This document shows, piece by piece, positions 23,939 to 27,077 of a DNA stretch of 64,000 nucleotides. The DNA is taken from assembly GCF_965641715.1 (NCBI RefSeq), contig NZ_OZ282453.1; one strand, 5' to 3'. A program made the position numbers and the translations under genes. The notes beneath the pieces are model-generated. The model was given only the letters and a program-made list of their open reading frames with translations, did no database searches and was not told the origin of the DNA. Source of the DNA: Escherichia coli (GTDB taxonomy: Bacteria > Pseudomonadota > Gammaproteobacteria > Enterobacterales > Enterobacteriaceae). How positions within the stretch are numbered: position 1 is the first letter of the stretch; each line of letters starts with the position of its first letter.

Positions 23939-24226
23939 CTAAAGTCCCAGCCACAACAACCATGCGTCGCGGCGTTCTTTCGGTTGCTCAAAAAACGCTT
24001 TGCGCATGCCTTCGTTAAATGCTGGCAGATATACCCAGTTTTCTGATGCACGCGTCTTTACTGAACCTGGTTTCACAAAGTCAATTGTCGGTAGCTTTGC
24101 TGCGTCAATCATGGTTCTGACTGTGGATTCCTTGCGGCCGATCATCTTGGCGAATAGTTGATATGGCACCGCTTCAAGTGGATATGGTGCTACCTGAATG
24201 AACCCCCCAAGCTCTGATTCGCTCAT
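23939..24226 (-). CDS. cox: Cox-like regulator/excisionase
   Basis: 95 aa; PYQLFAKMIGRKESTVRTMID...LPTIDFV...NWVYLPAFNEG...RDAWLLWLGL parallels P2 Cox as I recall it; divergent from C. Confidence 0.8.
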   Translation of the reverse strand: MSESELGGFIQVAPYPLEAVPYQLFAKMIGRKESTVRTMIDAAKLPTIDFVKPGSVKTRASENWVYLPAFNEGMRKAFFEQPKERRDAWLLWLGL

Positions 24227-24339
24227 TGTGGTAATCTCCCTAATTCGTTCGAATGGCTCAAAATGGCTTATATCGGCTTATTTGAGTGTTTTTATGTTTG
24301 TGCCCGATGTGGCATGTTGCGATGGAGGATATGCCCGAT
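24227..24339. promoter_or_regulatory. Lysis-lysogeny switch region (divergent early and repressor promoters) with candidate operators
   Basis: Between cox and C; three GGCT(C/T)A repeats at exact 10-bp spacing (24255, 24265, 24275); two palindromes TGCCCGAT(G/A)TGGCAT (24301-15, 24332-46). Confidence 0.5.
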
Positions 24340-24660
24340 ATGGCATCTTTGTCAAGCATGGGTGAAAAATTTCGCCTGATTCGTGAAGCAGAAGGTATGA
24401 CCCGCCAGGAGTTTGCGGATTGTGTTGGGCTGCCTTATGGGACGGTAACTAACTATGAGGTGAGGGGGAAGCAAGTAACAGAGGGTGCCTTACTTAAGGT
24501 TACGAAACACCCTAAATTTAAGAAGTATGCTTATTGGTTATCAACAGATGAAACGATGCCGGAGGTCGGGCAAATTTCTCCGGCTCTCTCTCTTGATGGT
24601 TCCTGCAATTCGGAGGGAGATCGCGTTTCAACCGAAAAAATCCAAAAATTATCCCGCTGA
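24340..24660 (+). CDS. C-type immunity repressor (HTH); start among in-frame ATGs 24322/24331/24340
   Basis: HTH segment QEFADCVGLPYGTVTNYE and ...KYAYWLSTDETMPEVGQISPAL resemble P2 C as I recall it; same strand as int. Confidence 0.7.
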   Translation: MASLSSMGEKFRLIREAEGMTRQEFADCVGLPYGTVTNYEVRGKQVTEGALLKVTKHPKFKKYAYWLSTDETMPEVGQISPALSLDGSCNSEGDRVSTEKIQKLSR

Positions 24661-24756: not shown

Positions 24757-25761
24757 ATGTCGATTAAGAAGCTCGAAGATGGTCGTTATTTGCTGGACAT
24801 CAGGCCGAACGGACGCAAGGGAAAGCGCGTGCGTAAGGTATTTGACAAAAAATCGGTAGCGGTGGCCACTGAACGCTACATCATGGCGAACGCTGAAAAG
24901 CGGGAATATATACAGGGCTACCGTGATCGTCGAACGCTAAATGATTTGCTTGAGTTGTGGTGGATGTATCACGGCCAGCACAGGCGTAAGGCGGAAGAAG
25001 ACCGAAAACAACTGCGCAACATAATCAATGAGCTTGGCGCTGATATGCAGGCTGTGGATCTTGATAAGCTGAAAATTATCGCGTGGCGTTCTCAAAAGAT
25101 AGCTGAAGGATTGAAACCGTCATCTGCTAACAGGTACATGAATCGGTTATCCGGAATGTTTACCGTGCTGAAAAAAATAGGTCTTTGGGATGCAGAACAT
25201 CCAGTAAGGGGAATTTCTATTCTTTATGTATCTCCACGAGAAATGGCGTTCCTGTCACAGAAGGAAGTGGCGCTATTGCTCGATACACTGGAGGGCGACT
25301 ACTGGCGTGTTGCGCTTTTGTGTTTAAGCACAGGGGCGCGCTGGAGTGAAGCTTGTAAGCTTCGTGGTGAACAGATAGTTCATAACCGTGTAACGTTTCT
25401 TGAAACCAAAAATGGCCGGAAGAGAACAGTGCCAATTTCGCAGGCAGTTTGTGAGGCGATCAAAACCAGAGAAACAGGCGGCTTGTTTGAGGTGAAGTAC
25501 CGGGAATTCTGCCTGGCGCTGAAAAGAGTTAAGCCCGACTTACCAAAAGGCCAGGCTGCACATGTGCTGCGGCATACGTTCGCCAGCCATTTTGTGATGA
25601 ACGGAGGAAACATTATTGCGCTTCAGAAGATTCTTGGTCACGCAACCATTCAGCAAACAATGGCATATGCGCATTTTGCACCGGATTACCTGCAGGATGC
25701 GGTGGCCCTTAATCCGCTGAAAGGTGGCGTAAGTGTCCACGCAGTGTCCACGGGGGATTAA
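24757..25761 (+). CDS. int: Tyrosine integrase, P2 type
   Basis: MSIKKLEDGRYLLDIRPNGRKGKRVRKVFDKKS... parallels the P2 Int N-terminus; ATG 24757 preceded by GGAGGG; C-terminal catalytic region HVLRHTFASHFVMNGG...LGH. Confidence 0.9.
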   Translation: MSIKKLEDGRYLLDIRPNGRKGKRVRKVFDKKSVAVATERYIMANAEKREYIQGYRDRRTLNDLLELWWMYHGQHRRKAEEDRKQLRNIINELGADMQAVDLDKLKIIAWRSQKIAEGLKPSSANRYMNRLSGMFTVLKKIGLWDAEHPVRGISILYVSPREMAFLSQKEVALLLDTLEGDYWRVALLCLSTGARWSEACKLRGEQIVHNRVTFLETKNGRKRTVPISQAVCEAIKTRETGGLFEVKYREFCLALKRVKPDLPKGQAAHVLRHTFASHFVMNGGNIIALQKILGHATIQQTMAYAHFAPDYLQDAVALNPLKGGVSVHAVSTGD

Positions 25762-25919
25762 TTTTATATAGCCTGAAACGGCTTAAAGGGCGATACTGAA
25801 TAACAATTTTTCAGTATTGCCCGTCTAAATGGTTATGTTGTTATCTGTATGATTATTAATGTTTTTTCAGATTAAACAGCAGTTTGCAAATGGGCGTTTG
25901 TTGATAAAGGAGCCTTAGA

Positions 25920-27077
25920 TTGTCAGAGACTGAAAAAGGGTTAAAAATCCTTGTTGATGAAAATATGCCTTATGCCCGCGACTTATTTAGCCGTTTGGGT
26001 GAGGTGACCGCGGTTCCCGGGCGTCCAATCCCCGTCGCTCAACTGGCAGACGCGGATGCGCTGATGGTGCGTTCGGTCACGAAAGTGAATGAATCTTTGC
26101 TGGCAGGAAAACCCATTAAATTTGTTGGCACTGCCACTGCGGGGACCGACCATGTCGATGAAGCATGGTTGAAGCAGGCGGGAATTGGTTTTTCCGCTGC
26201 ACCTGGCTGTAATGCGATTGCGGTGGTGGAATATGTTTTCTCCTCCCTGCTGATGCTTGCCGAACGCGATGGATTTTCACTGCACGAGCGTACCGTGGGG
26301 ATCGTGGGCGTTGGTAATGTTGGTCGGCGTTTACAGGCACGACTGGAAGCGTTAGGGATTAAAACCTTGCTTTGCGATCCGCCTCGCGCTGACCGTGGGG
26401 ATGAGGGTGATTTCCGCTCGCTGGATGAATTAGTTCAGCATGCGGATATTCTGACTTTCCATACGCCACTTTTCAAAGACGGGCCGTACAAAACGCTGCA
26501 TCTGGCGGATGAAAAACTGATCCGTAACCTGAAGCCAGGAGCGATTCTGATTAACGCCTGCCGTGGCGCAGTCGTCGATAATACCGCGCTGCTGACCTGC
26601 CTGAATGAAGGCCAGAAGTTAAGCGTAGTGCTGGATGTCTGGGAAGGCGAACCGGAACTTAACGTGGAGTTGCTGACAAAAGTGGATATCGGCACGCCGC
26701 ATATTGCAGGCTATACCCTGGAAGGTAAAGCACGCGGTACTACGCAAGTGTTTGAAGCCTATAGCAAGTTTATTGGGCATGAACAGCACGTTGCGCTGGA
26801 TACATTACTACCCGCGCCAGAGTTTGGTCGCATTACACTGCATGGCCCGCTCGATCAACCGACGCTGAAAAGGCTGGTGCATTTGGTGTATGATGTGCGC
26901 CGCGATGACGCACCGCTGCGTAAAGTCGCCGGGATACCGGGTGAGTTCGATAAACTGCGCAAAAACTATCTTGAGCGCCGTGAATGGTCATCTCTGTATG
27001 TAATTTGTGATGACGCCAGTGCGGCATCATTGCTGTGTAAACTGGGTTTTAACGCCGTTCATCATCCGGCACGTTAA
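25920..27077 (+). CDS. pdxB: Erythronate-4-phosphate dehydrogenase; start codon uncertain (TTG 25920 or ATG 25965)
   Basis: Near-identity over ...[21 protein letters not shown]... to E. coli PdxB as I recall it. Confidence 0.9.

Follow-up and report, generated by a model that had tools for sequence, protein, structure and literature searches.

The cox-C-int region of a P88-like prophage

The 64,000-nt stretch of Escherichia coli DNA analysed here (the window) carries, from about position 160 to 25965, a P88-like prophage (Xuanwuvirus, Peduoviridae; P2 family) integrated at pdxB. The right end of the phage DNA lies at approximately 25957-25965, inside the 5' end of pdxB. In this part of the prophage, cox and C are divergently oriented and int follows C, and the P2 record has a matching gene order. 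The cox-C-int stretch is 99.9% identical to that of Xuanwuvirus P88_4B11, and is also related to those of Citrobacter phage Shae_phiSM and Escherichia phage Chuche. Its genes are as follows.

23939-24226, minus strand: cox (95 aa), which opens the early (lytic) operon and is predicted to encode a Cox-family excisionase that also represses the C/int promoter Pc
24340-24660, plus strand: C (106 aa from the ATG at 24340), P2-type immunity repressor by homology
24757-25761, plus strand, co-oriented with C: int, annotated tyrosine integrase with Pfam Int_N and Phage_integrase domains

The product of cox matches Pfam family Phage_Cox (PF10743, E = 1.3e-22) and PDB entry 4LHF (E = 3.5e-26), shares 56% identity with P2 Cox, and has a homologue in P88_4B11 that is annotated as Cox. 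The C product is related to P2 C (37% identity by BLASTP, E = 3e-23) and to PDB entries 2L49/2XCJ (phmmer, E = 4.6e-16), and gave a weak Pfam HTH_3 match under the gathering score. It can be aligned with the C proteins of P2, WPhi and PhiECO5, with 34-40% identity to P2 and WPhi C (40% for WPhi C) and 43% identity to the C protein of PhiECO5 (class IX). The initial annotation, which placed sequence motifs between divergent cox and C genes, was thus correct on the gene content, as the motifs are flanked by genes of the Cox and P2 C families with int located after C. A switch of this type was present in 226 of 5426 complete E. coli genomes (~4%).

Three further features of the prophage were observed. 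At the pdxB side (25762-25965), the phage provides an AAGGAG ribosome-binding site and a TTG start codon (25920) that stand in for the first pdxB codons, and pdxB is therefore probably still functional. The attachment-site arm holds, directly after int, a long inverted repeat (25788-25823; GGGCGATACTGAA...TTCAGTATTGCCC). It is identical or near-identical in four phages, and could be the terminator of the C-int transcript or the site of a recombination protein. The match of the tail-fibre segment (160-1968) to P88_4B11 is inverted relative to the remaining prophage, and a DNA invertase gene adjoins this segment in the P88_4B11 record, which suggests a host-range segment that can be inverted and is present here in its alternative orientation.

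Repeats and promoter elements between cox and C

The elements recognised in and around the intergenic region, named according to the functions proposed for them, are listed below.

24254-24262, minus strand: candidate Cox box 1, TTTGAGCCA on the cox-sense strand, holding GGCTCA
24264-24272, minus strand: candidate Cox box 2, TATAAGCCA on the cox-sense strand
24274-24282, minus strand: candidate Cox box 3, AATAAGCCG on the cox-sense strand
24301-24315, plus strand: O2, promoter-distal candidate C operator TGCCCGATGTGGCAT, around positions +5 to +19 in the predicted Pe transcript
24324-24329, plus strand: Shine-Dalgarno sequence GGAGGA for C, read from the sequence, overlapping the Pe -10 on the other strand
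24326-24331, minus strand: predicted Pe -10 TATCCT, from a promoter scan
24332-24346, plus strand: O1, promoter-proximal candidate C operator TGCCCGATATGGCAT, located in the Pe spacer and including the start codon of C
24350-24355, minus strand: predicted Pe -35 TTGACA, in C codons 4-6

Two near-identical 15-mers, the second overlapping candidate C start codons, had been noted previously, and both were recovered: TGCCCGATGTGGCAT occupies 24301-24315 and TGCCCGATATGGCAT occupies 24332-24346, where ATGs are found at 24331 and 24340. The two copies are identical at 14 of 15 positions and lie 31 bp apart, and the repeat finder reported an extended match of 18 nt with 89% identity. When the intergenic region was shuffled 2000 times with its dinucleotides preserved, a direct repeat of 14/15 identity at a spacing of 15-40 bp arose once. 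The 64-kb window was also searched for distant operators that could take part in looping, and contained no further copy of the 15-mer with fewer than three mismatches.

The best promoter-like site between cox and C has 10 of 12 matches to sigma-70 hexamers and an 18-nt spacer. Being on the minus strand and directed at cox, it is the candidate early promoter, Pe. O2 starts 11 bp past the predicted -10, and the 15-mers lie either side of this hexamer. On the plus strand, no sigma-70-like promoter that could serve as Pc was detected in type A (the immunity type of the window, see below) by a standard scan or by a lenient one, for which 7 or more of 12 matches, or an extended -10, sufficed. TATATC stands where P2 has the Pc -10.

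Three GGCT(C/T)A repeats at 10-bp spacing had likewise been reported, and are present as GGCTCA at 24255-24260 and GGCTTA at 24265-24270 and 24275-24280, with starts exactly 10 bp apart. The phased GGCTYA triplet gave a single match in the 64 kb, even with three mismatches allowed (0.18 expected). In P2, the cox-box consensus is TTAAA(G/C)NC(A/C), the starts of the boxes are 10-11 bp apart and the boxes overlap Pc; P2 has at least six, and DNA bending by its Cox requires more than four boxes (PMC3936717). The three boxes of the window score 4, 6 and 6 of the eight specified consensus positions, and have a P2-like orientation and position. The closest agreement is that of box 2, which differs from the P2 Pc box TATAAGACA (L004, 1965-1973) at the 'N' position of the consensus alone. 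The P2 boxes nearest to cox (TAAAAGGCA, TATAAGACA and TTAAACGCA) have the same strand and phasing as those of the window, and the distance from the end of the boxes to the cox ATG is 23 nt in P2 and 27 nt here. When the P2 consensus was applied with up to two mismatches, the three P2 Pc boxes were recovered and the window gave 1515 matches against 1421 expected. As matches to single boxes are at chance level, only phased arrays were used.

A position-weight-matrix scan also identified box-like motifs beyond int.

25766-25787: two box-like motifs in opposite orientation, ATATAGCCT on the plus strand and TTTAAGCCG on the minus strand

These motifs are found 5-26 nt after the int stop codon, and the P2 attP Cox site is annotated beside the 3' end of int. 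By analogy, they are possibly the Cox site of the attachment-site arm. As there are only two motifs, both moderate, the support they give is weak, and as the attachment arm is ~100% conserved among the relatives, conservation there is uninformative.

Immunity types and covariation of the repeats with C

Relatives that have a near-identical Cox together with the same boxes and cox leader carry C proteins that differ in the recognition helix. The paired repeats differ with them. In Shae_phiSM (type B) they are GATCACATATGATCC and TATTACATGTAACCC, 31 bp apart, and in Chuche (type C) they are TTTCTCATATGAGAAA and TTTCTCAAYTTAGAAA, 24 bp apart. Both pairs occupy sites equivalent to O1 and O2, either side of the Pe -10, and the hexamer at the -10 position reads TAAACT in type B, TATACT in type C and TATTAT in the divergent locus L045. 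Hence, in these heteroimmune relatives, the 15-mers are swapped together with the C gene while the GGCTYA boxes stay. The box array is common to types A, B and C, with a fourth phased box in types B and C, and loci with other Cox types have different phased repeats of ~10 bp preceding cox. Wherever Cox is shared the array is shared, whatever the C type, as seen in L059, L073 and L081 and again in L091 and L110. Since the array follows the Cox type and the 15-mers follow the C type, this comparison was taken to settle the proposed pairing of GGCTYA with Cox and of the 15-mers with C.

The sequences of the individual boxes agree with this pattern of constancy. Box 1 reads TTTGAGCCA, TTTGGGCCA or TTTTAGCCA in relatives of the three immunity types. 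Box 2 is nearly invariant among 27 distinct related sequences, the exceptions being TATAAGTCA in three type-B sequences and TATAAGCTA in Chuche. Box 3 is AATAAGCCT/C, AGTAAGCCT or AACAAGCCT, and is always 10 bp from box 2.

Conservation within type A was assessed in 21 IMG/VR loci representing 11 distinct sequences, with L045 left out. The operators are invariant among the 11 distinct relatives (0 of 30 positions vary, 0 of 15 in each), compared with 5 of 16 variable positions in the inter-operator spacer (Fisher p = 0.003) and 13 of 88 in the remaining intergenic region (p = 0.017). In the Cox boxes, 1 of 27 positions varies. The invariance of the operators would reflect purifying selection and supports a function for them. 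In L006 (CATCCT) and in L013 and L044 (both TGTCCT), the predicted Pe -10 is altered at positions equivalent to 24330-24331 and both operators are intact. These three loci may be locked or promoter-down, non-inducible prophages, or the Pe -10 may be misassigned.

The position of the C start was also evaluated across the types. RefSeq starts the C homologue of P88_4B11 at the ATG corresponding to 24358. The ATG at 24340 is, however, the sole start conserved across immunity types, and is probably the C start codon. It is preferred over 24358 because it holds a fixed place in O1 in types A, B and C and in PhiECO5 despite differing operator arms, because type B has no alternative in-frame ATG, and because GGAGGA is found upstream at 24324-24329. 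The GGAG of this Shine-Dalgarno sequence is kept in types A, B and C.

A fourth example is provided by PhiECO5 of E. coli UTI89, assigned to tentative immunity class IX (PMC3448106), in which the Pe/O1/O2 layout is as in the window with yet another repeat. At this locus (L058, 1100-1145), the Cox-family protein is far longer, at 173 aa by annotation, and other phased repeats, TGCGCTTGT twice and GGTTTGTTTT twice, are found upstream of cox. In addition, 29 C types were gathered with a C-protein profile and repeats were scored near the C start, and paired direct repeats were supported across the set (Fisher combined p = 1.6e-10).

Within one immunity class, C proteins are at least 95% identical (PMC3448106). 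With operators TGCCCGATRTGGCAT and a C protein this divergent, the window falls outside the P2 and WPhi classes. The comparison with P2 and WPhi operators that had been called for gave different sequences (TGCCCGATRTGGCAT as opposed to GTTTAGAT and GTCACCAATA). Judged by its sequences, the switch appears to have an immunity specificity of its own, set apart from those of P2, WPhi and PhiECO5 (class IX). The proposal that the motifs are candidate operators of a variant immunity specificity therefore gained support at the sequence level from the Pe geometry, the covariation with C and the match to Cox boxes. A simple code linking recognition helix to operator was considered and rejected: L067 has a near-identical helix 3 (YGTITNYE) and different repeats, and hence no code is claimed.

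Five of 41 related loci (L017, L038, L041, L042 and L043, all from IMG/VR) have a single ORF of ~200 aa with two C-type domains. In each, a Chuche-type N-terminal domain is fused in frame to a domain of the window type (L017) or the Shae type (the other four), with a homologous junction (...SEVxSxLGxKxRL...), and the Pe operators at these loci are of the Chuche type only. A tblastn search of 50,697 records of deposited phages found single-domain C genes only. The tandem product may be a dual-immunity repressor.

The 15-mers had also been described as palindromes with ATGCC/GGCAT arms. This is true of the second copy; the first does not have these arms, and the core shared by the two is TGCC-N6-GGCA only. 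Position 24331 is variable among close relatives. The palindromy of the window sites (5 of 7 or 6 of 8 pairs) is not above chance, as 801 of 2000 shuffles did as well for the 16-mer, and p = 0.9 was obtained at the near-identical locus L059. Palindromy was therefore not used as evidence for this locus. Across the 29 C types, palindromes of 16 bp are enriched (Fisher p = 7e-6) and the best palindrome overlaps the repeat unit in 21 of the 29. Perfect palindromes were seen at O2 of L080, where 20 bp are symmetric on inspection and the scan scored the central 16 bp, at O2 of L108 and L110 (both 16 bp), and at O1 of type C; P2-like members have no clear half-site palindromes. P2 C is a symmetric dimer and yet reads non-palindromic 8-bp repeats, and the seven P2-type immunity classes known at the time all seem to use direct repeats (PMC2995052). 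It is tentatively suggested, with the case nearly balanced, that in the P88/PhiECO5-like branch the half-sites are palindromes 14-20 bp long in direct repeat, that one C dimer reads each of them symmetrically, and that the proximal site is arranged around the C start. This branch-wide reading is not a finding for the window, as its own sites are weakly symmetric (TGCC/GGCA arms). If it is true, the palindromic branch would supply naturally occurring cases in which to test why asymmetric sites are tolerated by a symmetric C dimer.

A P2-type switch and its relation to known systems

The evidence supports the conclusion that the region is a P2-type lysis-lysogeny switch with its own operator specificity, the design of which is already well known and the specificity apparently new. 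In a literature search, no paper on operator mapping in P88-like phages was found. Taken as a whole, a bistable switch like those of P2 and WPhi, with the 15-mers as C operators and the GGCTYA repeats as cox boxes, is the likely reading. In such a switch, Pe would drive leftward transcription into cox. C dimers, probably one per repeat, would occupy O1 and O2, which at 31 bp apart are separated by about three helical turns, and cooperation between the two dimers would shut off Pe and confer immunity. Conversely, a Cox oligomer would occupy one box per helical turn and repress Pc, the rightward promoter of C and int, whose expected place, judging from P2, is beneath the boxes. We infer the binding, stoichiometry, cooperativity, transcription start sites and Pc position within this switch model.

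As both switch proteins of the P2 type bind direct repeats (PMC1904268, PMC3936717) and sequence alone labels neither site, the reverse assignment, with C on the phased GGCTYA repeats and Cox on the 15-bp repeats, was also weighed. It is extremely improbable given that the GGCTYA array is constant in relatives with one Cox and three different C proteins while the 15-mers change with C, that GGCTYA fits the P2 cox boxes in sequence, orientation and phasing, and that the 15-mers bracket the Pe -10 like the C operators of P2 and WPhi. Alternatively, the main role of the 15-mers could be at the RNA level, as hairpins in the C mRNA or in the leader of cox that might, for example, hide the C start codon, and not as DNA bound by protein. 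A stem of 4-5 bp is possible in each copy, and that of the second encloses the ATG at 24340. However, the folds are unremarkable on either strand (z-scores -0.9 to -1.4, with 18-40 of 200 shuffles folding as well or better), the window sites are no more palindromic than expected by chance, and hairpins would leave unexplained both the direct-repeat relation and the fixed place of the repeats around the Pe -10 across immunity types, making this role a very unlikely one.

For the GGCTYA repeats, the alternative is that they are part of Pc or sites for a host factor, with Cox binding elsewhere. There are three boxes only, Pc was not located in the promoter scans, and the fit of single boxes to the P2 consensus does not exceed that of chance sites. 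Nevertheless, the exact 10-bp triplet is unique in the 64 kb and has a P2-like orientation and distance to the cox ATG, there is a fourth phased box in types B and C, the arrays differ in sequence between Cox types, and a pair of similar motifs is found just past the end of int, the place of the attP Cox site in P2. On balance, a role unconnected with Cox is unlikely. Finally, the repeats might be chance features of an AT-rich intergenic region, as the palindromic aspect by itself would allow. With the direct repeat reproduced in 1 of 2000 shuffles, a triplet unique in the window, invariant operators and the family-wide p = 1.6e-10, the probability of this is considered negligible.

With the 15-mers assigned to C and the GGCTYA repeats to Cox, a 120-bp spacer without annotation becomes a testable map of Pe, O1, O2, three Cox boxes and the C start codon. 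Among Xuanwuvirus prophages, three or more immunity modules would be exchangeable while Cox and the cox boxes stay constant, which leads to a prediction of which of these prophages exclude one another. As the P2 C family is a model for symmetric dimers reading direct repeats, its clearly palindromic relatives offer comparison points.

Known switches resemble that of the window to different degrees. In phage 186, the CI/Apl system is like the P2 type in having face-to-face lytic and lysogenic promoters, and Apl, an excisionase and repressor, acts on direct repeats one helical turn apart (PMC7498355). However, 186 CI is about twice the size of C and likely of different origin (PMC3448106), and 186 additionally has cII. 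A 186-type CI/Apl/CII switch was therefore rejected for the window, where the repressor is a 106-aa homologue of P2 C and the annotation includes no cII-like ORF between cox and the next genes.

The restriction-modification controller C.Esp1396I is structurally similar to P2 C and binds directly repeated palindromes, one dimer to each (PMC2995052). This is the binding mode suggested above for relatives with clear palindromic half-sites. Unlike C, C.Esp1396I is not an immunity repressor of a phage, the centre-to-centre spacing of its sites is 15 bp, and the sites in the window are weakly symmetric.

WPhi (immunity class III) shares with the window the divergent cox and C genes, a repressor of the C family, and two direct half-sites that flank the Pe -10 about three turns apart. 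Both P2 and WPhi have their half-sites on either side of the -10, with centres 22 bp apart in P2 and 34 bp apart in WPhi (PMC1904268), compared with 31 bp in the window; two copies of the half-site GTCACCAATA were seen in the WPhi sequence. The WPhi operator is 10 bp long as opposed to 15-18 bp for TGCCCGATRTGGCAT, the WPhi repeats on the cox side (CCAGTCCCTTCTAGG type) are unrelated to GGCTYA, and the C start codon of the window is inside O1.

P2 has homologous C and Cox proteins, and as in the window the Pe -35 is at the 5' end of C, O1 is in the spacer and O2 follows the -10; in the P2 record, O1 is annotated at 25894-25901, the -10 at 25907-25912 and O2 at 25916-25923. The half-sites of P2 (GTTTAGAT), in contrast, have a length of 8 bp and a spacing of 22 bp, and are non-palindromic according to PMC2995052. 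At Pc, there are six or more cox boxes in P2 compared with three strong ones here, and the P2 Pc is annotated with a TATAAT -10 for which no counterpart is recognisable in the window. The C ATG abuts the -35 in P2, whereas it is within O1 in the window. The understanding of the P2-type switch is unchanged, and its known design is extended to an apparently new specificity.
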